64,000 nt of DNA from an uncultured Candidatus Saccharibacteria bacterium (GTDB taxonomy: Bacteria; Patescibacteriota; Minisyncoccia; UBA6257; 2-01-FULL-56-20): positions 8-64,007 of the forward strand of contig CAYHXC010000008.1 in assembly GCA_964360585.1 (NCBI GenBank). The letters are read 5' to 3'. Shown piece after piece: positions 4,626 to 40,027 of the stretch. The translations under genes and the position numbers were made by a program. The number at the start of each line of letters is the position of its first letter. Within the stretch, counting starts at the first letter, position 1. Below the pieces are notes generated by a model that was given only the letters and a program-made list of their open reading frames with translations, was not told the DNA's origin and ran no database searches.

Positions 4626-4649
4626 TATTCCTCCTCCCATCGCTGGGTG

Positions 4650-12198: not shown

Positions 12199-12362
12199 AA
12201 CTCTCTCACCTCCTATCCTTTCTTGATACTTGGTTAACTGAACTAAAATAAGTTATCAAAGGGCACCTCCGGTCGAAAATCCCATAAATACAGGATTCCG
12301 GCGGATGTTGCATTTAAGTATAAATTGTTCCTTTTGTCAATATTTTCTGCCATCAAGATTTC

Positions 12363-13802: not shown

Positions 13803-13888
13803 TTCAAAAAAGTCTCGCGCCGAGAGTAGAACCGAATCCCCTGTTTGTTTTGTAGTATTTAGAATCCTAATTAATGTAAAATAAAAGT

Positions 13889-14131
13889 ATGGTCAGAAAA
13901 GGAATAGTACATAAAGTGCCGGCGGACTTACGCAAAGCTCTGATTGCAACACCCGCGGCGCGAGCAGTATGGGAGGATATTACGCCTTTAGCGCGCAACG
14001 AATGGATCTGCTGGGTCATATCTGGCAAAAAAGCGGAAACGAGAATTATCCGTATCAAAAAGGCACTCTCAAAACTAAAAGGCGGCATGCGCCGACCGTG
14101 CTGCTGGGCCGGTTGCGGTCATAGAAAATAA
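13889..14131 (+). CDS. YdeI/OmdA-like small protein, copy 3
   Basis: 80 aa with the same signature as copy 1; more diverged at nucleotide level. Confidence 0.6.
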   Translation: MVRKGIVHKVPADLRKALIATPAARAVWEDITPLARNEWICWVISGKKAETRIIRIKKALSKLKGGMRRPCCWAGCGHRK

Positions 14132-19152: not shown

Positions 19153-19174
19153 CACCAGCGGCTTTTTTATTTAA
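19141..19174 (+). terminator. rho-independent terminator
   Basis: GCCGCTcgttaacaccAGCGGC + TTTTTTATTT. Confidence 0.6.
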
Positions 19175-19342
19175 CTAGAACCCATCTCAAAAATAGAATC
19201 ACGCAGTCTTCCGGCTAGATTCGGCTATAAACCCACCCGACCCTCCTTGAAATACCATAGGGTATTCCTGTCTCGGGTCGGATGGTTCTCGCTCGAATCT
19301 ATCACGGAATACCCCTGTGCCTATTTTTGAGATGGGTTCTAG
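19175..19342. mobile_element. MITE-like palindromic element, copy A (168 bp, 21-bp perfect TIRs CTAGAACCCATCTCAAAAATA)
   Basis: Perfect terminal inverted repeats, long imperfect internal palindrome, no coding capacity. Confidence 0.7.
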
Positions 19343-19405
19343 GCTCCCACCGGCGGAGGACAAAACCCTTGGAACCGAATGGTAGATTTTTGAGATGGGT
19401 TCTAA
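19343..19405. repeat. partial MITE-like copy (one TIR plus ~40 bp) abutting copy A
   Basis: gatttttgagatgggttctaa repeats the TIR; overlaps the stop codon of the downstream minus-strand gene. Confidence 0.55.
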
Positions 19406-23530: not shown

Positions 23531-25144
23531 TTGGAGGGTACGGAAATGTCGAAGCGAATCATGACGGCGATTGTGGCGGCCACACTGCTACTCAGCTTGG
23601 TTGCCGAATCTTCGGCAGCCGTAACCCAAACTATCGTGATTCGAAAGGGTCAGAAGGTTTGGACAACTTGCGCCTCGGTAATGGGAAGCGATCCCAAGTC
23701 GGCGACGACTGGGAACTGCGTGAACAGTGTCACGGACTTGAATCTCAAACTCAATGAGAACTTCAATGTGAACTGGATTCTGGCCGGTACGCCGGTTGTC
23801 TTCCCGATGGGAACGACTCCGGTAGCTGAAACCATTCCCAACTCGCACCATGAAATGGCCGAGCGAGCTCCAATGGCAGGAATGCCGCCGGTGAACGTGG
23901 CTCGTGGAGCGGCTGATCAGAACCAACCCGCGCCAAGCCCTGTCGTGCAACTCGGACTTCATCAAGTGGATGCCCTGAAGGCCGCAGAAACGACCATCAC
24001 TCAGCTCCGCAAACAGCTCGCCGAGAAGGCTCCGATGGAAGGTAGCGACGCAGTCGTTGCCGATCTCCAGAAAAATCTCGAGGCAGCCGTTACGCGGGAA
24101 GAAGTTGCAGAAATACAACTCGAAGCCCGTACGGCAGAACGAGATCGTCTCGCCAAGGCAAATGAAGGCATGGCACGACAACTCGCGACAGTTCAGAAAG
24201 CCAAGCCGGATGTAGCAAACAACAGCTTGAAAGAAGCTCTGGAGAGAGAGCAGAAAGAACGGGCGATTGCTGAAGGCACGCTCGCTGCTCAAGTCACGAG
24301 TCTCCTCGAGGAGAAAGACATCCTCACAAGGAAACTTGAAGTGGCGGAGAAATCCGTCGCTGACAGTAACAAACTCTCCGGAGAACTCGCGACGGCGAAG
24401 AGCGTGGTCGAAGCGAAAGAGGCTGAGATCATGGAACTCCACCAACCATGGCTCACAATCGACTTCAGCAAAGCGAATTGGATCGCGGTTGCTGGAAACA
24501 TCATCCTCCTCTTGGCTCTTTTCATTCGGAGAAAACGCTCGTACTATAAGGCCGGGAACGAAACCACTAATCTACTCCGAATGAAGTTCGAAGCCCTGCA
24601 AGTTGAGCTGCGCGAGGAACGAGAACGCTCGTGGAATAACGCCGCCCTATCCCGAGAAGTTGACGAGCAGTGGGAAACGACGTTGGAGAAGGTTCCTGAT
24701 GAAGGACGCCTGCCATTCCGCATCTCCCCTCTTCTTTTCGATGGAAAGCACGCAGGAAAATTTGTCTACTTCAAGTCGACGATCCCTATGCGCTGCGGCA
24801 GGCTGGTTCAGTCTAAACGCAAGTTTTTCGAGCACGTAAAGGAATGCTCAACCTGCCTCGCGCAAATCGACCAAGAACTTACTTTGAGTAACGGGCATCC
24901 CGATGCACCGGCGGCCTCCCTTGGGGGAGTGTCAAAGGCTATGCATCAAAGTGGCAACGGAGCGGACTCGGCATCTCACGTCGAAGTTCCAAACCTTGTA
25001 GCCACGGATTCACTTGCTCAAAACGGCAACGCACACGCCCAGAATGGCAACGGCGACAATAGACGCCGCGTCAGTCTTGGAGCGATCGACGACACAGGTG
25101 GCGACCCCGTCTTGCGTAAATCGCAAGGCGAAAAGGTTGCCTGA
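23531..25144 (+). CDS. signal peptide, coiled-coil, mid-protein TM protein (537 aa)
   Basis: Signal peptide, long heptad-like E/K/A-rich region, TM helix WIAVAGNIILLLALFI, C-terminal Cys-containing region. Confidence 0.5.
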   Translation: MEGTEMSKRIMTAIVAATLLLSLVAESSAAVTQTIVIRKGQKVWTTCASVMGSDPKSATTGNCVNSVTDLNLKLNENFNVNWILAGTPVVFPMGTTPVAETIPNSHHEMAERAPMAGMPPVNVARGAADQNQPAPSPVVQLGLHQVDALKAAETTITQLRKQLAEKAPMEGSDAVVADLQKNLEAAVTREEVAEIQLEARTAERDRLAKANEGMARQLATVQKAKPDVANNSLKEALEREQKERAIAEGTLAAQVTSLLEEKDILTRKLEVAEKSVADSNKLSGELATAKSVVEAKEAEIMELHQPWLTIDFSKANWIAVAGNIILLLALFIRRKRSYYKAGNETTNLLRMKFEALQVELREERERSWNNAALSREVDEQWETTLEKVPDEGRLPFRISPLLFDGKHAGKFVYFKSTIPMRCGRLVQSKRKFFEHVKECSTCLAQIDQELTLSNGHPDAPAASLGGVSKAMHQSGNGADSASHVEVPNLVATDSLAQNGNAHAQNGNGDNRRRVSLGAIDDTGGDPVLRKSQGEKVA

Positions 25145-25175
25145 TTATGAAGTTCGGTTAGATACCCACCCATAA

Positions 25176-25207
25176 GGCCAGTCCATCACACGGACGGGCC
25201 TTTTTTA
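25176..25207 (+). terminator. rho-independent terminator
   Basis: GGCCaGTCCatcacacGGACgGGCC + TTTTTTATT. Confidence 0.55.
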
Positions 25208-25316
25208 TTCTTCGCAATAATATGTGTTGTGAGATTGCCGCGTCGTTCGCCAACTGGCGAACTCCTCGCAATGACAAATAAGCACATCGAAGGAAGATTG
25301 ATCCTAATCTGCTATA

Positions 25317-25655
25317 ATGTACTGTATGACTACTTTTATCGGAACGATCTCCTGGTTCTTGGGCAAACTCAGTCGACTCATTGTGTATGCCTACTGTTTT
25401 CTTGTCGTGGCTTCTTATCTTGCGGTTCACAGTAAAATTGCCGCCTCGACCGGCGCTCCGGAACGGTTTGCGTTCAGCATCTTCCTCGCCATTTTTGAAG
25501 CGATCGTCCTTATTCTCATTCCCATCGCTTTTTTTTCGTTTCAACCGGTCGTTGCAACCTACAGCCACTGGGCAATTTTTGGCGTACTCGCCGCGATTTT
25601 CGCCTTCCTCTATCCTGATGTATTAGAACTGGCAATCTCGTATATCCACTTTTAG
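25317..25655 (+). CDS. possible small membrane protein (112 aa)
   Basis: Three hydrophobic helices; no clear SD. Confidence 0.3.
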   Translation: MYCMTTFIGTISWFLGKLSRLIVYAYCFLVVASYLAVHSKIAASTGAPERFAFSIFLAIFEAIVLILIPIAFFSFQPVVATYSHWAIFGVLAAIFAFLYPDVLELAISYIHF

Positions 25656-25787
25656 AAATCGCCAATCTGGAAGAGATTGCCGCGCCCGCTTCGCAGAGCT
25701 TTAGCGAGGCGAGTCGCTTGCGCTCCTCCCGCCTGAGGCGGGCAGGCGCAATGACATACGGGTATGCCCCGTATCCACGGGTTTATG

Positions 25788-25823
25788 CCCGTGGTTTTGG
25801 CATGGGAATTTGGCATATAAAAA
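25788..25823 (+). repeat. hairpin + TTTGGCATATAAAAA motif, copy 1
   Basis: cccgtggttttggcatgggaatttggcatataaaaa, about 85% identical to the copy at 35926. Confidence 0.45.
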
Positions 25824-25848
25824 CCAGCCAAAAAATGGCGGTTTTCGT

Positions 25849-27906
25849 TTAGTTTCCGGCGTTAAAGATATCACGCACTTCCGTTGCCGTAAGCGCTTTA
25901 TTATAGACCCTTACCGCATCCAACCGACCAGCAAAAGAAGTGTTGTAGGGGAAATTAAATGGATTGACCGCAGTGGACGATGGCGCCCACGATCCCACAA
26001 ATGATGAGGCTACAGAGTTTCCATTAACATATGCCGCTCCGGTCGTGGGCGAACTAATTACCGCCACAAGATGAGTCCACGCTCCAACAGGCGGGGCATA
26101 CGAAGTAAAGGTGAGCCCGGAAGAAGTAAAATTATCAAACAGCACTGTCGACGCTGAGTTCAAAGCAAATCGAAGCTGCGCATTTTTTCGTACGATTTCT
26201 TTACCGTTCAACACCGAAGTTGGATAGACCCAAACCGATAGAGACAGTGGCGCGGCATCAAAGTCAATGGATGCGGCGTGCGGAACAGAGACATAGTTAT
26301 CACTGCCGTTGAATTCCAAGCAACCACCCTCTTTACAACTGGCGCCTGAAAGCCAAGCCGGACTACCGCTCGCATTTCCAGTATTCCCATTCGCAGTCGC
26401 ATCGGCAACGGGTATGCCAGGCGTATCATTCATTCTCCAGTAACCTTTAAGATTGGCATCGTAGTTCACGGTAAAGAAATTTTCAGTATTAAATTGCAGA
26501 TCCGGATTGGTAACCGTCACACTGCGCACACCAACCGGCGCTGTGCTTGACACATTGATTGTGACATCAATCCGGGTAGAGTTCACGAAAGTCGGCGAAC
26601 CGACATTCGTAATACCGGCTCCGCCAAAGACAACCGTCGCGCCACTCACGAAATCAGCGCCATTAACCTGCACGACAAGATTATTCGTCGCCTGGTTACC
26701 GGCACTTGGTGAGAGCGAGAAAATTGAAGGCGCCGGTGCGGCGGCCGCATTCACGGTAAAGGTACTGGCATTGGAGGTCTGGGTATCAGGATTGGTCACG
26801 GTCACACTTCTCGCGCCCACTGTGGCGCCACCGGCAATGTTGATCGTTACCGTTAAAGTACTGGAGTTTACATATGTCGGCGAGCCCACCTGGGTAATAC
26901 CAGTGCCGCTAAAGAGTACGGTTGGTAAGGAAGGCGTATTCACAAAGTTAGCACCGTTCACGGTGACGACAAGGCTGCTCGATCCTTGGGTGCCGAAATT
27001 CGGGGAAAGCGAGGAAATTGACGGGGCTGGCGCGCCAGGCGCAGTTATCGTGAAAGCATTTGAGGCGGTGTTTGAGGAGTTGTCCAAATTGATAACCTTG
27101 AGATCCCACTGACCAACGGCGGCGCCGGAGATGTTAAATGATCCGCCCGTAATGGTTGTGCCGTTGGTCACGCTAAAACCCGTCCCCGTAATATCGGTCT
27201 GGCCAGTCTTCATAAGTTTAACTGACGCGCCGGACACGAATCCTTGTCCGGAAATCGAGGTAATACTCACCGTGTTGTTATTCACACCGGTTGAAGGAGT
27301 AATTGAATAGACTTGGACGCTTTGCGAGTTGGGACGAAGCGGCGCCACAGTCAAATGATTCCCGATCTCAAGCAAAGTCGTGTCGTCGCCGCCGTCCTGA
27401 ATAAGATCACTGCGGTATCGCTGTGACTCCATCGCGGCATTTAACTCCCAACTACCAGCAACAAAAGTATAGTAGTAACCCGAAGAGGTGGTGTTCGTCG
27501 GATCTATTGGCAGAACCGGAAGATTGGGATTGAATGACATATTCCCAAAGTTCACGGGAAGCCAACCGGTGCCATCAGCGTTCCGGAAGGTTGAACTGGG
27601 GCTACAGTAGAATGTCCAACCCGCAGGTGGCGTCAGGCCTGTATTGGCACAACCGGGATCGGAATCTGGAATGGAAAGATACACGACCGAAGGGGAGCCA
27701 AACGTTGCTCCAGGAATGTCAGTTTGGTAAAGACGAAGGGCGGTGTTGATCATTTGGAGATCTTGAAGACGTCGTGAGTCTCGGGCGGCGCGTAAAAGCT
27801 CAACCGGATTCAAGACAAGGAGAACCACGACCGAAAGCACGGCAATAATACCGATCACTACCAAGAGTTCAATCATGGTGAACCCTTTTTTCGACGCAAA
27901 ATTCAT
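25849..27906 (-). CDS. large type IV pilin-like protein with IPT/TIG-like repeats and C-terminal LamG domain
   Basis: Prepilin N-terminus KKGFTMIELLVVIGIIAVL; two tandem ~95-aa Ig-like repeats; C-terminal LamG-like ...RLDAVRVYNKAL. Confidence 0.75.
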   Translation of the reverse strand: MNFASKKGFTMIELLVVIGIIAVLSVVVLLVLNPVELLRAARDSRRLQDLQMINTALRLYQTDIPGATFGSPSVVYLSIPDSDPGCANTGLTPPAGWTFYCSPSSTFRNADGTGWLPVNFGNMSFNPNLPVLPIDPTNTTSSGYYYTFVAGSWELNAAMESQRYRSDLIQDGGDDTTLLEIGNHLTVAPLRPNSQSVQVYSITPSTGVNNNTVSITSISGQGFVSGASVKLMKTGQTDITGTGFSVTNGTTITGGSFNISGAAVGQWDLKVINLDNSSNTASNAFTITAPGAPAPSISSLSPNFGTQGSSSLVVTVNGANFVNTPSLPTVLFSGTGITQVGSPTYVNSSTLTVTINIAGGATVGARSVTVTNPDTQTSNASTFTVNAAAAPAPSIFSLSPSAGNQATNNLVVQVNGADFVSGATVVFGGAGITNVGSPTFVNSTRIDVTINVSSTAPVGVRSVTVTNPDLQFNTENFFTVNYDANLKGYWRMNDTPGIPVADATANGNTGNASGSPAWLSGASCKEGGCLEFNGSDNYVSVPHAASIDFDAAPLSLSVWVYPTSVLNGKEIVRKNAQLRFALNSASTVLFDNFTSSGLTFTSYAPPVGAWTHLVAVISSPTTGAAYVNGNSVASSFVGSWAPSSTAVNPFNFPYNTSFAGRLDAVRVYNKALTATEVRDIFNAGN

Positions 27907-27932
27907 TATTTTTTTATTATATCACAAATACC

Positions 27933-30900
27933 TTAACCGCCGCTCCGTAGTTTCTCCACAAGGAGCATGAGAAGCTGAAGCAGTCTCGCTTGAAGATCGT
28001 GGAGAAGCGCTTCAAGTTGGGCGCGTGTCCGGATCGGCGTTGTTGTCTGCGGCGTTTTTCCGTACAGTTGATTTAACTTAAGTCGGGTGGCTGGTCCGGC
28101 TAAACCATAGCCAGTGGTGTTGGGGGTGCCACTCGTGACGAGGTTCTGTTTGGTCTGGAATCTCTGGACGGCTTGGATAGTGGCTTGGTCATAAATACCG
28201 GTCGGAGTTCCCGTGTAACTGCCATCATCTATCAGGTACTGCTGGAGGAGGGTGACTTGGGTGTTGACCATGCCCGGGGAGAAGGGACCGGTCAGAGCTT
28301 GCCTGGTGATTGTTGGGGATTGAGGGACTGTCGGCGTGGTTGGAGTAAGCGGTACTAAGGGTGGTGGAATGAAGGGTTGGCCGGGGATACCACCGGTGTT
28401 TCCTGAGGCTCCGGTGTTACCACTCACGGTTGTCTGACCTGCTACAGTAGTTGCCTGTCCTGTGGCCGGGCTACTGTAGTTTGCATTCTGGTCGTAGGAG
28501 TAGAGGGCGTAGAAGTAGGTGACACCATTCACGAGGTTGGTATCGGTAGTGGAAGTACCCGTACCATCGTAGATGGAGATGCCATCAGTTCTTGAAGTTG
28601 GGATACTTCCCTGTTTTCTCACAACCATGGTACGGACAAAATCTGGGTCAGTGGGGTTCACCCAACTCAGTGAGACTTGACGATCAGCGCCTTGAGTTAT
28701 CAGATTGCTTGGTGATCCTGGCGGAGTTGTATCTACCTGAGGCGTAGAAGTTGTTGTCGAGCTTGGCGTGACCGGAAGAGAAAGTGTCGTGAAACTGACG
28801 AGACTGGAAACAGGAGAGAGATTATTTGCATCATCACGTGAGGTAAGCGCAACGGAGTAGGTCGTATTGGGAATGAGGCCAACGAGGGTGTAGGTCTCGG
28901 CTTGTCCCGCCATCTGGGGAGTTGGTTCACCCGTGACTTGCGTCGCCGAGTTATAGCTGAAGGATCCTTGGGTGTACCGGAGATCGTAACTCAAGGCCTG
29001 GCCGAGCAAAAGATCATCCCCTGGCGCCGTCCAGGCAAGAACGGCTGAGGTTTGGGTCGTTGTGGTAACGCGGAGATCGGTTGTCTGACTGGGCGGCAAG
29101 GTATCCGGAATTACATTTATAAGTGTGGCTGCCAGTTGATTAGTAGAGAAACTGAGGTTGTTTGCGGCATCAGCCGATCGAAGTCGTATGTTATACGTAG
29201 TGCCATCCGAGAGATTCTGGAGAGTGACTGAGTGGCTGGTGGTAAGCGACGAGATGAAAGGTGATGACTGGCCATACGTAGTAGTGAGACCATAATCGAT
29301 TTGCGTGGTCGCTGGTTCATTGGTTGTCCAGCTGATCGTTATAGAACTCGTGGTGCCTGATGAAATAATTCCTGAGATCGTGGGCGGAATCGTATCAGGA
29401 AGAGGAATCGTTGAGGTGGTTGTGGTGAGTTTTTCCATAAAGTCTTCTGCAGACCAACCACTGACTCCAGAGTCCCAGTTCACGTTCCACCAGGTGAAGC
29501 CATTAGCAACTGTCGGGCCGCCGGTGACCGTACCCTGCTCATTGTTCTGAAGAAGAGCAAGAGACGTGCCCGAAGTTGATGGAGTTGAACGGACATTCAG
29601 GGGGCCGGAGGAAACATAGACTCTGTCATTTATCTGGAATTTAGCCGGACCGGCAACGTTCGAAACTGTAATCGTAACCGCGTTCGCCGTGGTTCGATTG
29701 CCAGCGGCATCGCGCGCCGTGGCCGTTACGCTGTGCGAGCCATTCACGGTTTGCGCGGTGTCCCAGGAAACAGAGTAAGGGGCAGTTGTATCTTCAGCTC
29801 CGAGATTCGCGCCATCGATAGCGAACTGAACTCCCGCGATGCCTATATTATCAGAGGCAGTAGCGGAAACAGTCGCTGAGCCGAAAAGTGTCGCGCCGGC
29901 GGCCGGAGCGGTCAGTGAAATAGTTGGCGGAACAGTGTCTGTTGTGGGCGTAGACGAGGTGATACTCACCGTGAGGGAAAGCGGACCCGAGACCGTACTC
30001 ATCGGCGTCGGCGTGACACCGTTAAAAGCCTTAGCCGTCCAAAGGTGCGTGCCATTTTGAGCCGCCGAGATATTCCAAGAATACTGATATGGCGCAACCG
30101 TATCAGTGCTGGCCAAAACCGCGCCGTCATAAAACTCCACTTTGCTTATTCCGCTTTCTGGATCGGAAGCCGTGGCCGTAATTATAACGGTCGAAGGAGT
30201 TGCGTATGGAACAGAACTCGAAGGCGCGGAGAGACTGACAATCGGCGGCGTCGAATCACTTCCACCATTCACCGTGTAGCAAAGAACGAGCTGGGTTGAT
30301 CTGTCGCCAGCATACGTTTGAGCGTCCCGGGGAACAAGCGGCGCGAGGTTATCTTCGTTTACTGCCGGCGGGGTGTTGTCGGTGAAGGTGAGTCGTAGGC
30401 CCGTATACCCGGAAAGATTTACATTTGACTGGATAGTGCTCAAGGCCACTGTCTGACGGCCGCTCGCTGTTGGTCTTACAATCGAAGCCGCAAACAGTGG
30501 ATCGGTTGAGTTCACTGAACCATTAGTCCAGTCGGCAGTGGACAGTCCCGCCGACGATGCCCACGGATGCCAGTCGAGAATCATTGACCGCGGTCCTCCG
30601 CCAGCTCCCGCCCAGTACGGCCGGAGATACCCGCCCAGAATTTGTGTGCCCTGAGGCCAAGCTGAACCATCCGGACGCACGGCCGTATTCCAACGCCACA
30701 ATGCCAGTTGTGTCACGTACGGCGAACTGCCCTGATTCTTGCGATTTACATAATCTATGTAATCAGCATAGTAACTAGTTTCGACGATTGGTGAGCCAAG
30801 ATTTGCATAGGTAGTGCCACTTCGCCTCACCGTTCCGTCATCGGCGCTCACCGCGATAGGATAGACGGCTTCCAACTGACCGGCGGGGCACGCGTTTGGA

Positions 30901-33900
30901 AGACTCGTTGGTGGTATGTATCGCGGGGCTGGCGGTATCGGCCATGACAACGGTGTAAATGGTGTGGCGTTTGTTCCTGGCGTATATTCGAAGGCGCCGA
31001 CATCAAGCGCTCCGTTTACCGGCCTCGTCATCGACTGCTTGTCATAGACGTACTGTTGGGTTGGCGTGAGATTATAGCCCCGCGCATCAGATCCCGGATC
31101 AACTCCTTGATCGATCACTGCCGTTGAATTCGCCGTCAAACGATAATCATACGCGCTTTGATTAAGAAGGCTTGGGCTAACCGTCACATTATTTGTCGTC
31201 ACTCGAGCGCCGCCGGCCGGCCAGTTGATGGTTGTTCCCAGCCCCAAGAAAATATTATTCTTGGCCCAAAGAAGCGGGGCCGAACCAAAACCGCGAATAA
31301 AGTTGGCTCCGGTAGCTCGTTCATTCACCAAAGTATTATTCACGACATAGAGCTCGTACGTGGTGGGAGCAGAAGTGGAGCAGGCTGACGAGCCCAGTTC
31401 CGCCGCGTACTTCACCACATCGCCACTATCGGCGTTCGATCCTTTTTGAATCACGTTACCAATGACATAGGTCAGTCCGCCACATGGCAGTTCTATCGGC
31501 ACGCTCGAACCACAGGTGCCAGGATCAGTGCAGTCGTTTATCACGCCATTCGATTCATCCATAAACCGGTTGTAGAGAATTTCATTCGTGCCGGCCCGGC
31601 TCTTCAGCTGATGCCCGACGATCGCGCCGCGACTGTAGTTATTGCGGAAAATGAGCTTGTCATTATTACGGTTCAGATACAGATTATGTGATTGACCGTC
31701 GCCCCAACCGTTTCTAAAGAATTCGGTATTTTCAATCAAGACGGTACCCACTGGCGACGATGTTATCGGCCCGCCTAAAATACCATTATCATTGTCGTGG
31801 AAATAGGAGTTGCGCACCGTGAGGCCCGCCGCTTGCAGACGGATGCCGGCATCATTATCGTCGCCCACCGCCACACCCGAACAGAAGGGATTGTTCAAAC
31901 GCGAAGTGGCACAGGCAAACTCAATAGTATCAACGGTTGTGTTATTGCCGTTCACGACCCAGATACCCTTCCAACTATCCGAACCCAGGCTGGTGGTGAG
32001 ATCGCCATTCGTAATGATCAGCTTCGGCCGGCCGCCTACGCCGCGCAGCGTAATATTCTGGGCGCTCGCCGGCCATCTGGCCAAGGCATATTCATTTTCA
32101 TAGGTCGCGGCATCAATATACACACAGTCATTTGACTGAACGACTGCCGCCGCCTGGCTGATCTTGGTAAACGTTCGCGTCGGACCAACCTGCCGAATCG
32201 TACCGGCACAAGCGCCAATCGGCGGCACATAGATTTCCAGATTTTGTTCTACGCCCCAACCATCCACTCCCGAATCATAATCCACATTCCACCAGGTGAA
32301 ACCATCCGCCACCGTCGGTCCGCCGATAACGGTGCCAACTGCATTCACCGCCTGTGTCCCCAGGACTGTTCCCGAAAGCGAAGCAGTTGATCGGACACTG
32401 AGCGGTCCGACTGAAACATACACTCGGTTGCCCGTCTGAAACTTTGAGGGCGGCGTTACCACATTCGAAACCGTTACAGAAACTGGAGTAGATAGCGCCG
32501 AATTTCCAGCCGCGTCGCGCGCTCGGGCGGAGAGCGCGTGGCTACCGTTCGCTGATTGAGCTGTATTCCAGGAGATACTATAGGGACTGGTCGTGTCTTC
32601 GACTCCAAGATTCGCGCCGTTCAACAAAAACTGCACGCCCACGACACCGACATTATCTGAAGCGTTCGCGGAAACGGTTACTGTTCCGGAAAGCGTCGCG
32701 CCGGCGGTCGGAGCGGTTAGGGACGTGGTCGGCGAGGTTGTGTCCGCGATTGTATCGTTATCATTAATCGTAACGGTGAGCGTAGATGGATTGCCCAACG
32801 TGGCGCCGCCCGTGGGGCTACTCAAGCTAAGCGAAAAAGTCTCGGTGGTTTCAATTGTCGTGTCGTTCAGAATAGGAATGGTTACTTGTTTGGCTGTGAC
32901 ATCGCCGTCAGCAAAAGTTACCGTGCCGGCTTGAGTCGTATAATCCGATCCGGCTAACGCCGTGCCGTTCGTCGTCGAGTAACTGACACTGACCGCGCCT
33001 TGAGAGCCACCGTAACGATTGATGGTGGAAATGGCCGCAGTCGCGCCTTCGGAAACTGTGGTCGCGCTCGCCCCCAACTGCACTGTTCCCGGAGAAGGGG
33101 CAGAAGGAGAGAGTTTAAATGCCCAGGTTTCAACATCGCCCGAACCAATACCACCAGTGCCGCCGGCTCCACCTCCTCGCGTAAGCACGAAGTAAAATTG
33201 TTGGTAAATTAAATCGTACCAGAGCTGAGCATAGCTTAATTCAAATTTATAAAAAGGTGGTTTGATTCCTCCCGCTGGCCCGACGTTCGCCCAAACGCCA
33301 GCGCTATCTAACGTCCACAATTCAAACTTTCCGATGGTCGTATTCGGAACGGCAATAAGAAACTGCTGGCTCTGTGGATCGTATGCCAATGACGCGCCAT
33401 TTCGAGCCACTTCCGAAGGAACAGTTAACTTTGTTGACCATGTTTTCGCGCGGGCATTGTAAAACCAGTAACCGGCGGATGGAAAATATACTAGATGCAA
33501 TTTTCTTACCGAATCATAGGCGGTGTAAATCTCACTCCAATTCCCTGGATAGTCGCTCGGATAGTTCACCTCTTGAACCCAGGCTCCGGTCGTGTAGTTA
33601 AAACTATAAACCTTTCTCACGCTAGATCCGAGAAAAAGCAGAACCGACCCATTGCCATCGCCGTCGGGATCGACATCAGGATCATACGCTAAAGATTTAT
33701 TGCTGACATCAGCCCCTGGCAATGTTCCGCCAACAAGCCGCGTCCACGCTTTTGTGCTAACTTTATACGAATACAGTCCGGCGTCATCATACATCATGAA
33801 TATGTCCCTATCGGGATCGTACACCTGCTTCTGGAATGTATGGGTCGTCCACGGCTTGCCCGTGGGAGAAGCGGTGATCGGATCAGCGCCATTCAAGACG

Positions 33901-35675
33901 TTGCACGCGCCCGCTTCAAGAGATCCTGCCACGCACGTGTTCGGAACGCCATTCCCCCCGCAACAGGCGGGTAAACATTCCGGAGCATATTGCTGTGTCC
34001 AGCGATTCGTCCGCACATCAAATAACTCAACATCATTTCCTGGATGAGACCCGTGTCCGCCGCCGAAATTAAAGAGATAACCGTTGCCATAGGCCACACC
34101 TGAAAATGCCCTGCCGACCGGATGACTAAGCGATATTTGCTGTGTGGGAGTGCATTGATTAAAACTTGCGCCATAATACCTCATCACCGCTGATCCGGTA
34201 TTCAGTTTCACCCAGGTGTTCGGTGTGATGGCGCCTGGCGGAGTTGAAGTTGGTGTAACCACAACCGCCTGTGTCGTCGCGCTCACACTCCCCGATTGAG
34301 CAGAATTATTTCCGGCGGCGTCGGTGGCTTGGACAGTGTAGGAATACGTCGTCGCGGCAGTGAGTCCGAGATCCTGGTATGAGTTTGAGGGAGCCGTGGC
34401 AAGTTGGATGCCATTCCGATACACACGATAACCGGTCACACCCACATTATCCGTGGAAGCAGTCCAAGAAAGATTAATCTGCGAGGTGGAAACCGGCGTA
34501 GCGGAAAGATTAGCGGGCGTTGTTGGAGCTTGCGTGTCTACTGTTGGAGTTGACGCTACCGAAAAAGAAATGGTCGTGTCGTTCGTCGTTACGTTACCGG
34601 CGGTGTCTTGACAGCGGACGTAGTAGAAGTAGGAAGAACCGGCGGCAAGACCAGAAACTGTGGCGGTGTGCGATTGGGAACCGCCGCCAGTCATAACGCT
34701 CGCGATACTCGCGTACACAACATTGGGAGTTGTTCCGTACCTACAGGTCGCTGGCTCATTCGTTGCCACTCCAAGATTTGTCTGGGTTGTACCGAAAATA
34801 AGTTGGCCGCCGGGCGTGGGGTTAGTAACCGAGGGAGGCGTGGTGTCGGCAACAGGAACACCGCCGCCAAAGGCATACAGAGATTGAATCTCACTCAAAG
34901 ACAATGATCGATTATAAATTCTCACATCATCAACGAAACCATTTACTTGACCACCTCCTCCAGGCCGACGACCGATATTTGGCCCCACTCCATTGTCAGT
35001 CAGGACGGGCGAAGCAGAGAGTGATCCATCAACCACGCCGTTCGTATAAATCGTTAGTGTGTTGCCATTATACGTACCAGAGATATGATGCCAGGTATTT
35101 ATTGAAAGCGTTGTGTTGCCGCTCACCACACTCGAACCTGCTCGAAATGAAACTTTGCCATTACTACCAACGGCCAAGAAATATGTTATCGTTCCGCCAT
35201 TATCACGATCAATCACCCGGTGAACAATCGTATTACTGCGTACATTGACCCACGCCGAAAGGGTAACTGTCTGTGGATTGAGAACGGTATTATTCGGAAT
35301 GGAAACATAATCATCCACGCCATCAAGGTTCAAAGCTCCGCCAATTCTCCCACTGGACCAAAGAGGGGTATTGATCAGCGCTCCGGTATTTCCATTTCCG
35401 GAACTATCACTCGCTGTCGTTCCCGATCCCTCATCAAAATTCCAGTAGCCAACTAAACCGCTCGTGGGTGCGACTTGGGCTAGTTGGCTTCCTCCCGGAA
35501 CTCGGGCAAAAAGCGACTGGATCAGTTGAGCAATAGATTGCAGTTGACTAAAAATGCCGGAGAGGTTTCCGGAAACTGATGTCTGGCCAAGTACCGGAAG
35601 CGGCGCAACAAAAACACTCGTCATCAGGACGAGAGTGACAAACATTCTCCGCTTTTTAAAGTTACTTCTCGACAT
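27933..35675 (-). CDS. giant (2580 aa) multidomain cell-surface protein with C-terminal peptidoglycan-binding domain
   Basis: Signal peptide; Con A/LamG-like domain (DDVRIYNRSLS); FN3 repeats; beta-propeller-like region; Calx-beta-like segment; right-handed beta-helix repeats (NSYFHDNDNGILGG); a duplicated Ig+SH3-like module; C-terminal PG_binding_1-like domain. Confidence 0.85.
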   Translation of the reverse strand: MSRSNFKKRRMFVTLVLMTSVFVAPLPVLGQTSVSGNLSGIFSQLQSIAQLIQSLFARVPGGSQLAQVAPTSGLVGYWNFDEGSGTTASDSSGNGNTGALINTPLWSSGRIGGALNLDGVDDYVSIPNNTVLNPQTVTLSAWVNVRSNTIVHRVIDRDNGGTITYFLAVGSNGKVSFRAGSSVVSGNTTLSINTWHHISGTYNGNTLTIYTNGVVDGSLSASPVLTDNGVGPNIGRRPGGGGQVNGFVDDVRIYNRSLSLSEIQSLYAFGGGVPVADTTPPSVTNPTPGGQLIFGTTQTNLGVATNEPATCRYGTTPNVVYASIASVMTGGGSQSHTATVSGLAAGSSYFYYVRCQDTAGNVTTNDTTISFSVASTPTVDTQAPTTPANLSATPVSTSQINLSWTASTDNVGVTGYRVYRNGIQLATAPSNSYQDLGLTAATTYSYTVQATDAAGNNSAQSGSVSATTQAVVVTPTSTPPGAITPNTWVKLNTGSAVMRYYGASFNQCTPTQQISLSHPVGRAFSGVAYGNGYLFNFGGGHGSHPGNDVELFDVRTNRWTQQYAPECLPACCGGNGVPNTCVAGSLEAGACNVLNGADPITASPTGKPWTTHTFQKQVYDPDRDIFMMYDDAGLYSYKVSTKAWTRLVGGTLPGADVSNKSLAYDPDVDPDGDGNGSVLLFLGSSVRKVYSFNYTTGAWVQEVNYPSDYPGNWSEIYTAYDSVRKLHLVYFPSAGYWFYNARAKTWSTKLTVPSEVARNGASLAYDPQSQQFLIAVPNTTIGKFELWTLDSAGVWANVGPAGGIKPPFYKFELSYAQLWYDLIYQQFYFVLTRGGGAGGTGGIGSGDVETWAFKLSPSAPSPGTVQLGASATTVSEGATAAISTINRYGGSQGAVSVSYSTTNGTALAGSDYTTQAGTVTFADGDVTAKQVTIPILNDTTIETTETFSLSLSSPTGGATLGNPSTLTVTINDNDTIADTTSPTTSLTAPTAGATLSGTVTVSANASDNVGVVGVQFLLNGANLGVEDTTSPYSISWNTAQSANGSHALSARARDAAGNSALSTPVSVTVSNVVTPPSKFQTGNRVYVSVGPLSVRSTASLSGTVLGTQAVNAVGTVIGGPTVADGFTWWNVDYDSGVDGWGVEQNLEIYVPPIGACAGTIRQVGPTRTFTKISQAAAVVQSNDCVYIDAATYENEYALARWPASAQNITLRGVGGRPKLIITNGDLTTSLGSDSWKGIWVVNGNNTTVDTIEFACATSRLNNPFCSGVAVGDDNDAGIRLQAAGLTVRNSYFHDNDNGILGGPITSSPVGTVLIENTEFFRNGWGDGQSHNLYLNRNNDKLIFRNNYSRGAIVGHQLKSRAGTNEILYNRFMDESNGVINDCTDPGTCGSSVPIELPCGGLTYVIGNVIQKGSNADSGDVVKYAAELGSSACSTSAPTTYELYVVNNTLVNERATGANFIRGFGSAPLLWAKNNIFLGLGTTINWPAGGARVTTNNVTVSPSLLNQSAYDYRLTANSTAVIDQGVDPGSDARGYNLTPTQQYVYDKQSMTRPVNGALDVGAFEYTPGTNATPFTPLSWPIPPAPRYIPPTSLPNACPAGQLEAVYPIAVSADDGTVRRSGTTYANLGSPIVETSYYADYIDYVNRKNQGSSPYVTQLALWRWNTAVRPDGSAWPQGTQILGGYLRPYWAGAGGGPRSMILDWHPWASSAGLSTADWTNGSVNSTDPLFAASIVRPTASGRQTVALSTIQSNVNLSGYTGLRLTFTDNTPPAVNEDNLAPLVPRDAQTYAGDRSTQLVLCYTVNGGSDSTPPIVSLSAPSSSVPYATPSTVIITATASDPESGISKVEFYDGAVLASTDTVAPYQYSWNISAAQNGTHLWTAKAFNGVTPTPMSTVSGPLSLTVSITSSTPTTDTVPPTISLTAPAAGATLFGSATVSATASDNIGIAGVQFAIDGANLGAEDTTAPYSVSWDTAQTVNGSHSVTATARDAAGNRTTANAVTITVSNVAGPAKFQINDRVYVSSGPLNVRSTPSTSGTSLALLQNNEQGTVTGGPTVANGFTWWNVNWDSGVSGWSAEDFMEKLTTTTSTIPLPDTIPPTISGIISSGTTSSITISWTTNEPATTQIDYGLTTTYGQSSPFISSLTTSHSVTLQNLSDGTTYNIRLRSADAANNLSFSTNQLAATLINVIPDTLPPSQTTDLRVTTTTQTSAVLAWTAPGDDLLLGQALSYDLRYTQGSFSYNSATQVTGEPTPQMAGQAETYTLVGLIPNTTYSVALTSRDDANNLSPVSSLVSFTTLSLPVTPSSTTTSTPQVDTTPPGSPSNLITQGADRQVSLSWVNPTDPDFVRTMVVRKQGSIPTSRTDGISIYDGTGTSTTDTNLVNGVTYFYALYSYDQNANYSSPATGQATTVAGQTTVSGNTGASGNTGGIPGQPFIPPPLVPLTPTTPTVPQSPTITRQALTGPFSPGMVNTQVTLLQQYLIDDGSYTGTPTGIYDQATIQAVQRFQTKQNLVTSGTPNTTGYGLAGPATRLKLNQLYGKTPQTTTPIRTRAQLEALLHDLQARLLQLLMLLVEKLRSGG
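29448..29942 (-). repeat. intragenic duplicated module 2 (Ig-like + SH3-like, ~165 aa) within the giant gene
   Basis: aa 1912-2076 are ~60% identical to aa 976-1144; the antisense shadow ORFs at 29839 and 32593 are also similar to each other. Confidence 0.7.
32244..32750 (-). repeat. intragenic duplicated module 1 (Ig-like + SH3-like)
   Basis: See module 2. Confidence 0.7.
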
Positions 35676-35726
35676 CTATCGACACCTTAATTTTACTCTA
35701 CTACTACTCAACCGCAAGGGGGAAAA

Positions 35727-35894
35727 CTAGAATCCATCTCAAAAATAGGCACAGGGGTATTCCGTGATAGATTCGAGCGAGAACCATCCGACCCGAGACA
35801 GGAATACCCTATGGTATTTCAAGGAGGGTCGGGTGGGTTTATAGCCGAATCTAGCCGGAAGACTGCGTGATTCTATTTTTGAGATGGGTTCTAG
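35727..35894. mobile_element. MITE-like element, copy B; reverse complement of copy A with one mismatch
   Basis: 168/168 bp alignment to the reverse complement of 19175-19342 with 1 substitution; lies 52 bp upstream of the giant gene start codon. Confidence 0.7.
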
Positions 35895-35925
35895 CTATTC
35901 ATAAATAAACCTCCACGGCCTAACG

Positions 35926-35962
35926 CCCATGGTTTTGACAGGGAACTTTGGCATATAAAAAA
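35926..35962 (+). repeat. hairpin + TTTGGCATATAAAAA motif, copy 2
   Basis: cccatggttttgacagggaactttggcatataaaaaa. Confidence 0.45.
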
Positions 35963-36434
35963 GCCACCCTTTCATTAGGTGGCCGGAGTCTTTCTCGACA
36001 GGAATTGTCGAATGCGACAGGTCAATATGTCTCCGAAACTTCGGCTATGACTATTTCCGTTCAGCTGTGGCGGTAGGTTGTCCCAACCGCGCAGGTCACT
36101 GTCCATTCGCCAAACAATGATCTGTTCAGCCTGGGCGATTCGTTCAAGATCGTCGTGGTTTCGCTTCTCCTGTCTAAGGAGCGCTCGGTATTCAGCGACA
36201 ACCTCTTTGGTCGGCATTCCGCGAAACTTATTTGCAAGAGCGTTTCTTGGCATTCTTCTTTTCCTTTTGTTTCAACCGCTCTTCGGAATCAGGAGCGGAA
36301 TCAGGATTCGGAAAATCTCCCCATGGATCACCGCATATCATGTGTTCTCACCGAATCTGTGAACTATAAAAAATGTACATCCACGAAACCCAATCGTCAA
36401 TAGTTTCGAGGAGCAAAGAAAAAGCCGATCGCGA

Positions 36435-36677
36435 TCAGCGATGGCTAAGGTCTGTTTCCGGGCCTTCGGGAAGAGCATCTGTTGGATAGCATTTGGAAGT
36501 TGAAGCCTTCCCTTTGCTGGCCTGCTGTGCCCATGTTGCTCCCTCGGTGCAATTTTCTTCTGTGGCGAATAGCTGAGAGGAGGTAAAAACGCTTGGAGCC
36601 ATTGTTCCTCCTTCTCCCACAAACATGAAAAACCAGCCCACAAGCACTGCCGCGTGTAGCAATTGTTTCATAGCCAC
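36435..36677 (-). CDS. possible small secreted protein (80 aa)
   Basis: N-terminal signal-peptide-like segment; weak support. Confidence 0.3.
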   Translation of the reverse strand: MAMKQLLHAAVLVGWFFMFVGEGGTMAPSVFTSSQLFATEENCTEGATWAQQASKGKASTSKCYPTDALPEGPETDLSHR

Positions 36678-36751
36678 CCCCGCCTGTGATCTGATTCCAG
36701 TATAGCACTTTCGACATGAAAATTTTCAGCGAGGAATGATACACTATTTTC

Positions 36752-37207
36752 ATGGCCAATGAGGAGTATAGGGTCTTATCAGTTGAAGACGACGAGTTCA
36801 TTACTCTTTTTCTGACCGATGTGATGTGGATTTTTGGCACAGCGGATAATATCAAGCTGATAAACGCAGCCACAACTGAAAAAGCGATGGAGATTGTGAA
36901 AAATCCAGTCCAAAAACCGCAGCTCATCTTGCTCGACCTAGCCTTGCCGGAAAAAACCGGAGACCCATCCGATCCGGAGCACGGCTTTCGATTTTTGGAA
37001 CTTTTGAAAACTGACCCGGCACTCATAGATATAAAAGTGTTAGTTTTTGCCGGATCAACTGATCCTCAGTACAAAAAACGAGCACTGCGTTTGGGAGCGG
37101 ATAAATTTTTAGTGAAGGGTGACTATTTACCCAAGGAGCTGATCGAGGTGGTCAGAGAAGCTTTATATATAACCCCCGCTTCCTCCGCGTTTCCTCCACA
37201 GGGTTAA
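36752..37207 (+). CDS. stand-alone response regulator receiver (CheY-like)
   Basis: Acidic pocket VEDDEF and phospho-acceptor region LILLDLALP; 151 aa. Confidence 0.7.
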   Translation: MANEEYRVLSVEDDEFITLFLTDVMWIFGTADNIKLINAATTEKAMEIVKNPVQKPQLILLDLALPEKTGDPSDPEHGFRFLELLKTDPALIDIKVLVFAGSTDPQYKKRALRLGADKFLVKGDYLPKELIEVVREALYITPASSAFPPQG

Positions 37208-37327
37208 CATTTACAGTTGGAGTTTTTTAGGTCTCATTCCGGCCCAGGTTTCCCTTGCGTCCTTGTTTTGATTAATTACTAGAAACTCGTATACTACGGG
37301 AAGCAATTTCACACGGGGAGGAACTGA

Positions 37328-38683
37328 ATGTCGAAGAAGGTATTCACTGTAGACACAAGCCCGATCATCCACGATCCGCGGTCGCTCCGGAATTTTCAAG
37401 ACAATGTTGTAGTGATTCCGTATTGGGTGATCCAGGAGCTCGATGGCTTGAAGGAGGCAGAAAACGGACGGGGGTTCGCTGCTCGCGAGGCTATACGTTT
37501 TCTTCGCTCACTGGTGGGCCAGTATGGTTCATTGGAAAAGGGCGTGCCTCTTGAAGGGGGTGGGGAGTTATTTGTTAGTCGAGATATGGCTAACATTCGT
37601 AAAAAGATTAAGGGTCTTCCTGATACGATAGATAATCGTATCGTGGCTACCGCTTTGTTCTGGCATATAGCAGAGGAGAGAAGGCCAGCAAGAGAGCGTC
37701 GACCGGTCATTCTCGTCACGAAAGACGGGACAATGGCGATAACTGCTGATACCTGCGGCCTCAAGGTGCAGGACTACCTGACAGATCGGGGTATTCTTTC
37801 CGCTTCCGACTTGCCGACAGGACATATCGAGATTCCGTTTACGGGTGATCGGGGGACTCTTTCCAAGTTTTTCAAGGAGGGGAAGATTCCTGAATCGTTT
37901 ATCCATCCGATCATTGGCGACGATGTGCCGACTAACACCTGCATCTCGTTGACGTTCGAGGATGGCCGAGGCATTCACGGCATTTGGAAAGGTGACTACT
38001 TTTCTGTTGTTTCCCACAAAGCCAAATCGGCTGGGGGCCAACTCAATCTTCGCCAGGCATTTGCCGAAGCGCTGATATGTTCCCCAGAGATTTCCATTGT
38101 GGCTCTCGCTGGTCAAGCGGGCACGGGGAAGACTTTTTCTGCTTTGGTTGCTGGACTGAAACATCTGCAGAGTCAGTTTCAGCATATCACCGTATATCGA
38201 CCGAACATTCCCCTCGGCAAGGATCTGGGCTACCTGCCGGGTAATCTCGATGAGAAGTTTGCCCCTTGGATGAGGCCGATCGTCGACAATCTCGAGTCGA
38301 TTTTCGAAATTTTTCGCGCAGAGTCATGGTGTCGTCAGTTGCAGGATAAAGACCCTTATCAGTTGATCAGAGATAGCGTTGTCGAGGTTTCTCCGATCAA
38401 CTTCATTCGAGGAAGAAGCATTGCCCACAGTCTGGTTATTGTTGATGAGTGTCAGAATCTCACGCCTCATGAGGTGAAGACCATCATCAGTCGAGCGGCC
38501 GCCGGCACGAAGATTGTTCTAACTGGCGATCTGGGACAAATCGACAATCCTTTCCTTGATCCCTTAACCAATGGGCTCGCCCATGTAATCAAGAAGCTGC
38601 ATGGGATGGAAGATTTTGGCCACGTTCTTCTCACTGAGGGAGAGCGGTCAAAGTTGGCTGATCTAGCAGCGCGTTATCTCTAG
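37328..38683 (+). CDS. PIN-PhoH protein (YlaK-like)
   Basis: N-terminal PIN fold, Walker A GQAGTGKT, PhoH block VIVDECQNLT...LTGDLGQID. Confidence 0.85.
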   Translation: MSKKVFTVDTSPIIHDPRSLRNFQDNVVVIPYWVIQELDGLKEAENGRGFAAREAIRFLRSLVGQYGSLEKGVPLEGGGELFVSRDMANIRKKIKGLPDTIDNRIVATALFWHIAEERRPARERRPVILVTKDGTMAITADTCGLKVQDYLTDRGILSASDLPTGHIEIPFTGDRGTLSKFFKEGKIPESFIHPIIGDDVPTNTCISLTFEDGRGIHGIWKGDYFSVVSHKAKSAGGQLNLRQAFAEALICSPEISIVALAGQAGTGKTFSALVAGLKHLQSQFQHITVYRPNIPLGKDLGYLPGNLDEKFAPWMRPIVDNLESIFEIFRAESWCRQLQDKDPYQLIRDSVVEVSPINFIRGRSIAHSLVIVDECQNLTPHEVKTIISRAAAGTKIVLTGDLGQIDNPFLDPLTNGLAHVIKKLHGMEDFGHVLLTEGERSKLADLAARYL

Positions 38684-39699: not shown

Positions 39700-40027
39700 C
39701 CGCTAGGCTTTTTTATATGCAAAAGTCCCCTGTCAAAACCATGAGCGTCAGCCCGTGGATACGGGGCATATCCGCCTGTCATTGCGATCCGTCATCCGCC
39801 AACTGGCTGGAGGCGGAGAAGCAATCTCGATTGCCACGTTCCGTTTCGTCAGAGTTTTCAGCGAGACGGGTTGCTTCCCCTCCCTCCCCATGACATGGGG
39901 ACGAGGGCAGCTTGATCTCCAGTGATGCTACGGACGGAAACCGGGAAAGAATCACTGTATCAAAGAAAGATGCGGGTATTGTATAATAGTACGCATACCA
40001 AACAGAACTATATTTTTCGTCATCGGC

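Follow-up and report, generated by a model that had tools for sequence, protein, structure and literature searches.

A modular type IV pilin with a presumed lectin domain is encoded beside a one-off mosaic giant protein in a Patescibacteria genome

Results

Gene Layout and Source of the Locus

The stretch of DNA analyzed here, 64,000 nt of contig CAYHXC010000008.1 (hereafter the window), contains two adjacent genes on the minus strand, one encoding a multidomain protein of 2580 aa (hereafter the giant) and the other a 685-aa protein with the features of a modular type IV pilin (Table 1). Open reading frame (ORF) calling and translation reproduced exactly the positions and sizes of both ORFs given in a preliminary description made from the sequence alone. 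The TAA stop codon of the giant and the ATG of the pilin are 26 nt apart on the same strand, and a Shine-Dalgarno sequence, AAGGTG at 35683-35688, lies 7 nt ahead of the ATG of the giant ORF. The giant is identical to an NCBI protein from a metagenome-assembled genome (MAG) named [quoted passage not shown] (P0121), and the 685-aa protein is identical to a protein (P0001) on ENA contig L001 of sample Hain_H51_01um, a 0.1-µm groundwater filter fraction. The naming of the one and the filter fraction of the other point to an ultra-small Patescibacteria (Candidate Phyla Radiation, CPR) bacterium as the source, and the earlier guess of an ultra-small bacterium is borne out. The reading that we favor and hold to be probable is that these are two adjacent, separately evolving surface genes, one for a Sec-exported giant held at the cell wall and the other for a modular lectin pilin located at the pilus tip.

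The 685-aa Protein as a Modular Type IV Pilin

The N terminus of the 685-aa protein, MNFASKKG/FTMIELLVVIGIIAVLSVVVLLVL (the slash marks the predicted cleavage site), has a basic leader with Gly at −1, Phe9 at +1, and Glu13 at +5, and a hydrophobic stretch follows the glutamate (F9-T-M-I-E13-LLVVIGIIAVLSVVVLLVL). A prepilin motif of the KKG/FTMIE type occurs nowhere else in a six-frame scan of the window. Scores exceeded the cutoffs of both PF07963 (N_methyl; 25.8 vs. 21.2) and TIGR02532 (28.2 vs. 16.3), and a model built with AlphaFold2 (AF2) from 58 sequences (pLDDT 91.5) contains a 53-residue alpha1 helix at aa 11-63, composed of helices 11-31 and 34-63 and kinked at Pro34. The class III signal peptide proposed in the preliminary description is thereby confirmed at the level of sequence and predicted structure. 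The Gly-Phe cleavage context, which had been singled out there as the test of prepilin peptidase processing, is conserved: 44 of 120 homologs carry [GAS]-F-T-L-I-E, an N_methyl match is present in 105 of 112 representatives of the head family, and F9, T10, and E13 show little or no variation in the pilin alignments.

The start codon required correction. The ENA gene model of P0001 (675 aa) begins at Met11 (MIELL...), thereby dropping the leader MNFASKKGFT (27877-27906), and it carries no N_methyl match in the precomputed domain list. The longer start is supported by homologs such as P0047, which has the N terminus MNFSKSHKGFTLIELL. Through miscalls of this kind, automated annotation overlooks class III signal peptides.

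The alpha1 helix leads into a globular head that, in family alignments, has a conserved Cys86/Cys101 pair and the motifs DGTGW and LPxDPxN. The head profile matches the solved pilins and pseudopilins GspG, geopilin, Thermus PilA, and S. sanguinis PilE1 with E values of 1e-6 to 4e-5 over up to 80 residues. Next come three Ig-like repeats, which score 84.9 against a cutoff of 30 with NF058597 (CoaZ_rpt) and match plexin IPT domains and SGBP-B in Foldseek; PF01833 is present on homologs of this region. The C-terminal LamG domain resembles the arabinan-binding domain 4 of AbnA (5hon; Foldseek TMt 0.75, rmsd 3.1) and is presumed, from this structural likeness of the model, to be a lectin module. 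The earlier estimate of ~650 aa of adhesin-type domains was too high, because in the AF2 model a pilin module of ~180 aa comes first and the added modules amount to ~490 aa. By every sequence criterion the 685-aa protein is a type IV pilin, and its combination of a pilin module with domains foreign to type IV pili (PF13385 and the NF058597 repeats) makes it a modular pilin in the published sense (PMC8179133).

A HMMER scan with the head alone (aa 1-195) retrieved 953 cluster representatives at E ≤ 1e-30; relaxing the threshold to E ≤ 1e-10 raised the count to 2,247. The family is built mostly of ~400-aa proteins in which the head is joined straight to LamG, and head-only members of ~200 aa are rare among the top matches. 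Laminin_G_3 was found in 70 and TIG in 2 of the 112 representatives mentioned above, other modules including Kelch, fn3, fibrinogen-C, Big_7, and more. The 685-aa pilin is longer than most of the top matches and differs from typical members only by the insertion of its three Ig-like spacers of the IPT/TIG type. When the head profile was run against a genome collection, approximately seven loci matching most of the head were present among the matches listed, too few for synteny statistics; the matches listed were dominated by generic FTLIELLVVI pilin N termini from Planctomycetota and Verrucomicrobiota.

Domains, Export, and Wall Tether of the Giant

Most of the modules that the preliminary description had read in the giant (LamG, FN3, propeller, Calx-beta, and peptidoglycan-binding domains) were recovered with Pfam as Laminin_G_3, three fn3 domains, Kelch motifs, Calx-beta, and PG_binding_1, and three Big_7 domains and SH3_3 were recovered as well. 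The Kelch motifs begin at aa 522, and the presence of PF24681 on the homologs P0242 and P0245 supports a propeller. Besides the identical P0121, no protein in the homolog search aligned over more than ~30% of the giant. Judged by its sequence, the giant is a one-off mosaic built from widely shared modules, with a module order that is unique among the matches retrieved. The vocabulary itself (LamG, fn3, Big_7, Kelch, and PG_binding_1) is common to giants from CPR bacteria and from other groups: P0147 (3913 aa, Candidatus Giovannonibacteria) and P0217 are likewise large surface proteins with the same domains and a PG_binding_1 tether.

Export of the giant would rely on its Sec-type signal peptide; a hydropathy scan identified aa 10-31 as the sole hydrophobic segment above threshold. 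A combined motif and hydropathy scan of the giant found neither an LPXTG (LP.[TSA]G) motif nor a C-terminal hydrophobic or transmembrane segment, which rules out covalent anchoring by sortase. The giant had been described as wall-anchored; with no LPXTG motif, the term can mean only noncovalent binding through PG_binding_1, and it is the presence of this domain that survives of the earlier claim. PG_binding_1 together with an N-terminal secretion signal is the combination characteristic of a noncovalently peptidoglycan-bound protein, and PG_binding_1 is the presumed cell-wall tether.

Elsewhere in the window, a plus-strand gene at 55149-56483 encodes a secreted 444-aa protein with Ser/Thr/Gly-rich repeats, a predicted coiled coil, and a C-terminal PG_binding_1 domain. 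A helical or coiled-coil segment stands next to PG_binding_1 in this protein, in the giant, and in the protein encoded next to the pilin at a related locus (L008, see below), and such a helix plus PG_binding_1 may be widely used by these bacteria as a module for tethering to the wall. The DNA encoding the C-terminal FN3 domains and linker of the giant shows a local GC-skew spike (28001-30000; +0.21 on the plus strand), which likely reflects an abundance of Thr, Ser, and Pro codons (ACN, TCN, and CCN) on the coding minus strand.

A Predicted Beta-Helix with a Carbohydrate-Binding Module

Residues 1145-1815 of the giant gave no PDB sequence match in a direct search. Seven proteins of ~960-1170 aa align to 96-98% of this segment at 52-62% identity, several of them with Kelch in front, and hundreds more homologs cover its first 60% and are annotated with PF13229 or as "right-handed parallel beta-helix repeat-containing protein." An AF2 model of the 671-aa segment, produced from an alignment of 54 homologs, had a mean pLDDT of 83.5. 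In Foldseek, the best PDB match of the beta-helix was the polysaccharide lyase family 9 (PL9) pectate lyase Pel9A (1ru4; E 3.8e-6, TMt 0.64), and among the lower-ranked matches were Klebsiella and Acinetobacter phage tailspike depolymerases, the Vibrio polysaccharide lyase RbmB, PL6 alginate and chondroitin lyases, and an AlgE4-type mannuronan C5-epimerase. The family profile of the beta-helix also reached the pectate lyase 5gt5 (E 1.2e-5) over ~90 residues. The "pectate-lyase-like beta-helix" of the preliminary description is therefore correct at the level of the fold. The last ~200 residues of the model match the chondroitin-sulfate-binding carbohydrate-binding module (CBM) 8wab (TMt 0.63 in Foldseek); no Pfam match was found for this CBM-like sandwich.

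Among the 54 beta-helix homologs, 27 alignment columns are invariant, including H186, K214, and N225, and D182, H211, and R216 are near-invariant (numbering of the segment; adding 1144 gives that of the giant). The conserved motifs are GDGQSHNLY (aa 1325-1333 of the giant) and GHQLKSRA (aa 1354-1361). A pattern of invariant His, Lys, Arg, and Asp fits an active site and suggests that the beta-helix may be an active polysaccharide lyase or depolymerase. Pel9A has the same right-handed parallel fold as that predicted for the giant, at 16% identity; however, Pel9A is a free secreted enzyme, whereas the beta-helix of the giant is followed by a CBM-like domain and is one module in a 2580-aa wall-tethered mosaic.

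Two of the homologs of this segment, proteins of ~1150 aa that combine Kelch, beta-helix, and CBM (L005, 8001-11495; L006, 8001-11444), are 58-62% identical to aa 1145-1815 of the giant. Each is preceded by a ~447-aa Kelch-like protein and is accompanied by a Wzy-like polymerase and by either sulfotransferases or sulfatases plus the exosortase EpsH/EpsI. From sequence and gene order, the ~1150-aa protein and its Kelch-like neighbor look like a conserved enzyme pair without a named family, associated with extracellular polysaccharide (EPS).

Genomic Context of the Pair

No terminator-like site was found between the giant and pilin genes, so co-transcription is possible. The start of the pilin ORF has no Shine-Dalgarno sequence; an A-rich stretch and TGATATAAT, which resembles an extended −10 element, are found there instead. 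The promoter scan did not list TGATATAAT, for which there was no −35 match. Its proximity to the ATG, together with the lack of a Shine-Dalgarno sequence, suggests that a separate promoter may serve the pilin gene, whose transcript would then be near-leaderless.

Three of four related pilin loci (L002/L003, L004, and L009) have no large neighbor. The closest complete homolog of the pilin, P0004 (55% identity over the whole protein and 63% over the head), is encoded between RNase H and DNA glycosylase genes, and the genes for P0003 and P0047 likewise have housekeeping genes around them and no giant next to them. At the fourth locus (L008), a pilin 46% identical to the one studied here (P0007) is encoded after pheT, and the next gene encodes a 1197-aa protein with PG_binding_1 and a Pel9A-like beta-helix. 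This neighbor is not orthologous to the giant; what the two have in common is limited to the PG_binding_1 region and a short segment toward the end of the beta-helix. Recurrence at one locus of four is suggestive and provides no evidence of linkage; synteny is not conserved. The "operon-like pair" of the preliminary description is accurate as to the shared strand, the short gap, and the missing terminator, but the pair does not recur as a conserved unit at the related loci.

A Shuffled Big_7 and SH3 Cassette within the Giant

Two copies of a Big_7 plus SH3-like module, A and B (Table 1), align end to end with 63.5% nucleotide identity and 63-65% residue identity, the best nucleotide stretch being 103 nt at 72% identity. 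The ~165-aa internal duplication that had been proposed is thus present where it had been placed, but its description as recent is contradicted by codon divergence and by a match to another protein. Third codon positions are identical in 67 of the 166 aligned codons (40%), and the same codon is used for 49 of the 108 identical residues. The Big_7 plus SH3 module of P0217, an unrelated protein, is 64% identical to copy A and scores 206 bits against it, slightly closer than copy B at 199 bits, and the same two-domain cassette is found twice in P0192 and once in P0201. Because the module of an unrelated protein is equally similar to copy A, the repeat is best described from these comparisons as a real one that represents an old or independently acquired shuffled cassette, and a recent tandem-like duplication inside the giant gene, for all that the copies align end to end, is highly improbable at such low overall identity. 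No strain variants of the module were found: all that a metagenome scan turned up was this population again, in a replicate sample (L090, 100% identical and truncated), and L001 is the same sequence.

Repeats and Other Genes of the Window

The intergenic DNA around the pair contains repeated elements of two kinds. Upstream of the giant lies a palindrome resembling a miniature inverted-repeat transposable element (MITE), a second copy of which, 97% identical and in opposite orientation, is present at 19172-19351. As RNA the element would form a long hairpin (fold z −4.6). A Rfam scan of 25000-37400 at E ≤ 1 gave no match, and since the element is also a repeated palindrome, a known riboswitch or leader is ruled out; by sequence it looks like a recently mobile MITE. 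The second kind is a shorter repeat with the consensus TTTTATATGCCAAA.TTCCC.G.CAAAACCA.GGGC..., every copy of which follows a terminator-like hairpin and T-run; the copy at 25747-25823 stands directly after the pilin stop codon. Two copies (25774-25823 and 35912-35961; 82% identity; 10,138 nt apart) flank the giant and pilin genes in direct orientation. We judged it unlikely that these direct repeats are the boundaries of a mobile cassette: a third, inverted copy lies at 39706-39786, and this copy and the terminator-hairpin setting of all three give the repeat the look of a dispersed intergenic element, probably similar to repetitive extragenic palindromic (REP) sequences.

A third repeat family of ~246 nt occurs at 3346-3591, 12345-12590, and 13877-14122 (71-79% identity) and has a nested 37-nt subrepeat ending in GGAAACGAG. 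The window also contains two tandem paralogous ORFs with prokaryotic SLOG/LSDAT domains (PF18171) at 3855-5447 (minus strand) and 659-1819 (plus strand), a Fic/DOC-family gene nearby, and a gene at 5611-7545 for a 644-aa protein with a Polbeta nucleotidyltransferase domain. Going by their domains, these genes could form a defense or toxin-antitoxin-type cluster.

Table 1. Features of the giant and pilin genes and of the surrounding intergenic DNA (positions in the window; aa numbering of the respective protein)
Feature	Position (nt)	Strand	Basis or remark
Giant ORF, 2580 aa	27933-35675	−	Stop TAA at 27933-27935
Sec-type signal peptide, aa 1-30 (MSRSNFKKRRMFVTLVLMTSVFVAPLPVLG/Q)	35586-35675	−	Hydropathy; predicted cleavage site
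LamG/concanavalin A (ConA)-like, aa 118-264	34884-35324	−	Pfam PF13385 (Laminin_G_3), E 2.7e-28
Ig/FN3-like (aa ~275-380, weak Pur_ac_phosph_N), then fn3 (aa 386-462)	34290-34853	−	Pfam
Kelch-type beta-propeller, aa ~480-855	33111-34238	−	Kelch_1, Kelch_6, Kelch_4 matches; predicted extent
Calx-beta, aa 862-974	32754-33092	−	PF03160, E 3.6e-23
Big_7 + SH3-like module, copy A, aa 976-1144	32244-32750	−	Pfam; weaker SH3 at ~1092-1140
Right-handed parallel beta-helix, PL9/Pel9A-like, aa ~1155-1575	30951-32213	−	AF2 and Foldseek
CBM-like beta-sandwich, aa ~1601-1801	30273-30875	−	AF2 strands at model residues 457-657
Third Big_7 Ig domain, aa 1811-1878, without SH3 partner	30042-30245	−	PF17957, E 1e-16
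Big_7 + SH3_3 module, copy B, aa 1912-2077	29445-29942	−	Pfam; SH3_3 at 2026-2079
Three FN3-type domains, aa ~2095-2400	28476-29393	−	fn3 and Pur_ac_phosph_N (Pfam); NCBIfam partial matches
PG_binding_1, aa 2472-2519	28119-28262	−	PF01471, E 1.6e-9
C-terminal amphipathic helix, aa ~2548-2580	27936-28034	−	After PG_binding_1
TGATATAAT (TGnTATAAT, extended −10-like)	27916-27924	−	9 nt upstream of pilin ATG; read from sequence
Modular type IV pilin ORF, 685 aa	25849-27906	−	True start, ATG at 27906
Class III signal peptide and alpha1 helix	27718-27906	−	Leader MNFASKKG (aa 1-8)
Globular pilin head, aa 64-190 (~125 aa)	27337-27717	−	Beta-rich, strands at 74-182 (AF2)
Three Ig-like (IPT/TIG-type) domains, aa 198-288, 296-386, 394-481	26464-27315	−	AF2
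C-terminal LamG/ConA-like jelly-roll, aa 486-685	25852-26451	−	PF13385, E 6.3e-20
MITE-like palindrome, ~170-180 nt	35718-35897		22-nt terminal inverted repeats CTAGAACCCATCTCAAAAATAG; 42 nt upstream of giant start codon
Terminator-like hairpin of upstream gene	35962-35984	−	Repeat copy after it
Intergenic repeat, ~50-77 nt	25747-25823	−	Small hairpin inside
Intergenic repeat, ~50-77 nt	35912-35965	−	Small hairpin inside
Intergenic repeat, ~50-77 nt	39706-39786	+	Small hairpin inside

Discussion

The favored reading of two independent surface genes entails the following. The giant would be exported through Sec, held on peptidoglycan by its C-terminal PG_binding_1 domain, and would project a long chain of Ig, FN3, and SH3 spacers bearing putative glycan-recognition modules (LamG, Kelch propeller, Calx-beta, and the CBM-like sandwich) and, beside the CBM, a probably catalytic PL9/Pel9A-like beta-helix. 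Prepilin peptidase would cleave the pilin after Gly8 and methylate Phe9, after which the alpha1 helix and head would become part of a type IV pilus whose machinery would be encoded elsewhere in the genome. Given its bulk, the 685-aa protein is most likely a minor pilin at the pilus tip, where its three Ig-like spacers and terminal LamG lectin would be presented to bind glycan on a host cell or a surface. A role in host attachment, and hence in episymbiosis, is suggested by the domain content and by analogy with published work on other Patescibacteria.

The pilin has close parallels of architecture. The combination N_methyl (IPR012902) plus PF13385 is one of the 15 commonest architectures of modular pilins catalogued by Raynaud et al. 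in 2021, and many of its representatives are CPR bacteria: Magasanikbacteria, Falkowbacteria, Wolfebacteria, Gracilibacteria, and Saccharibacteria (PMC8179133). The 685-aa pilin shares with that class both its domain signature and its CPR host group. PilC of S. sanguinis (PDB 7OA7/7OA8) consists of a pilin moiety, an Ig-like module, and a ConA-like lectin, binds glycans, and has been modeled at the pilus tip (PMC9934059). The order of modules, from class III signal peptide and pilin through Ig-like to C-terminal lectin, is the same in both proteins, and both bacteria are of the monoderm type. However, the pilin moiety of PilC is unusually short compared with the full ~180-aa module found here, PilC has one Ig-like domain rather than three, and, unlike PilC, the 685-aa pilin is encoded outside a pil locus with no PilA-like partner identified; PilC was absent from a PDB sequence search with the 685-aa pilin at E ≤ 1, that is, there is no detectable sequence homology. 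In the Saccharibacteria strain TM7x (Nanosynbacter lyticus), the minor pilins PilX1, with a beta-jelly-roll C-terminal domain, and PilX2, with a beta-propeller, have been proposed to be tip proteins of a lectin-like kind, and efficient binding to the host requires PilX2 (PMC11623550). Like the 685-aa pilin, these pilins come from Patescibacteria and bear a large accessory domain at the C terminus, but they are encoded within type IV pilus loci and belong to oral Saccharibacteria of a different host phylum and habitat.

Several observations weigh against the favored reading. When the full-length pilin model was compared with the PDB by Foldseek, only Ig and LamG matches, which dominated the search, were returned. 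The beta-helix region (aa 1145-1575) reached no Pfam model at E ≤ 1, and its candidate catalytic residues come from the family alignment. The closest full-length homologs of the Kelch, beta-helix, and CBM block lie in EPS loci of other bacteria, with genes for Wzy-like polymerases, glycosyltransferases, sulfotransferases, sulfatases, and the exosortase EpsH/EpsI, and the block could act on the cell's own polysaccharide and not on that of a host. The pairing at L008 makes some functional linkage between the pilin and a PG_binding_1 plus Pel9A-like protein possible. Finally, pilB, pilC, pilD, and pilM were not found in the 64-kb window, and that this genome supports a functioning pilus is an assumption.

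The EPS setting of these relatives, which indicates that the ancestral role of the block may be polysaccharide processing, underlies the alternative that the giant is mainly a wall-tethered lyase or epimerase that processes the cell's own envelope or EPS rather than a host adhesin. The proximity of the relatives (52-62% identity over 97% of the 671-aa query) and the appearance of an AlgE4-type epimerase together with PL6 and PL9 lyases among the structural matches are consistent with this. However, no EPS biosynthesis genes lie near the giant ORF in the window, the homologs from EPS loci are only ~1150 aa long and have no PG_binding_1 domain, and the giant surrounds the block with numerous further modules of lectin and Ig type, as are typical of adhesins. 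We therefore judge this alternative unlikely.

A functional operon of the two genes, forming a kit for attack on host surfaces, is an improbable alternative. The tip lectin would capture host glycan, pilus retraction would bring the giant to the host, and the beta-helix would cut capsule or EPS in the manner of a tailspike. The arrangement of the two genes would suit such an operon, the LamG domains of the two proteins are homologous (29% identity, E 3e-12), the likeness of the beta-helix extends beyond Pel9A to tailspike depolymerases, the pilin-family member P0054 shares Big_7 and FN3 module types with the giant, and the L008 pilin directly precedes a protein of related composition. On the other side, the closest pilin homologs have no giant neighbor, the giant is without a full-length ortholog so that the pair cannot be old, the neighbor at L008 is not its ortholog, the pilin possibly has a separate promoter, and surface-protein genes often cluster for unrelated reasons.

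Archaeal sugar-binding proteins with class III signal peptides, as in the bindosome, are a precedent for display outside a pilus. The 685-aa protein could by this precedent be a lectin of the cell body, its class III signal peptide serving export and membrane anchoring or assembly into a pseudopilus or bindosome-like structure. The missing pilus genes nearby, the dispersal of the gene family among housekeeping genes rather than in pil clusters, and the very large size of the family, with few head-only members among its top matches, would fit such a protein. Strong conservation of the ~125-aa head, with its invariant Cys pair and its DGTGW and LPxDPxN motifs, argues instead that the head has a structural part in packing the filament and is more than an anchor. 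Moreover, pilB-pilT-pilC-pilD clusters accompanied by several small pilins of similar alpha1 sequence are present in related CPR genomes (L017 and L020), CPR bacteria have well-conserved type IV pili, and minor pilins with large domains are functional in these bacteria (PMC11623550). A cell-body lectin is consequently a distinctly improbable reading.

Two separately evolving genes, one for a wall-held giant and one for a tip-located lectin pilin, thus remain the probable explanation, and it leaves the current picture unchanged: the architecture class of the pilin is published, the pairing is not conserved, and the functions would follow from domain content. The pilin architecture is already catalogued, and the giant combines common modules in an idiosyncratic way. 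A broader proposition, which we regard as quite doubtful, is that lectin pilins and peptidoglycan-tethered PL9-like beta-helix proteins constitute a recurrent two-part toolkit in Patescibacteria, adjacent both here and at L008. If that were true, the toolkit would be a cellular analog of phage receptor binding followed by tailspike depolymerization, with LamG capturing a glycan and the depolymerase cutting at the point of contact, and the fact that pilins (P0054 is one) and giants draw on one pool of Big_7, FN3, and LamG domains would be a sign of co-diversification against the glycans of hosts. To our knowledge, little has been established about how ultra-small episymbiotic bacteria recognize and attach to their hosts; the foremost candidates for the task are type IV pili. 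In that setting, the locus provides a further, well-annotated example of a very large CPR lectin-pilin family (~950 representatives) that is uncharacterized as far as we found, together with a wall-tethered neighbor that, according to its predicted folds, may both bind and cut polysaccharide.

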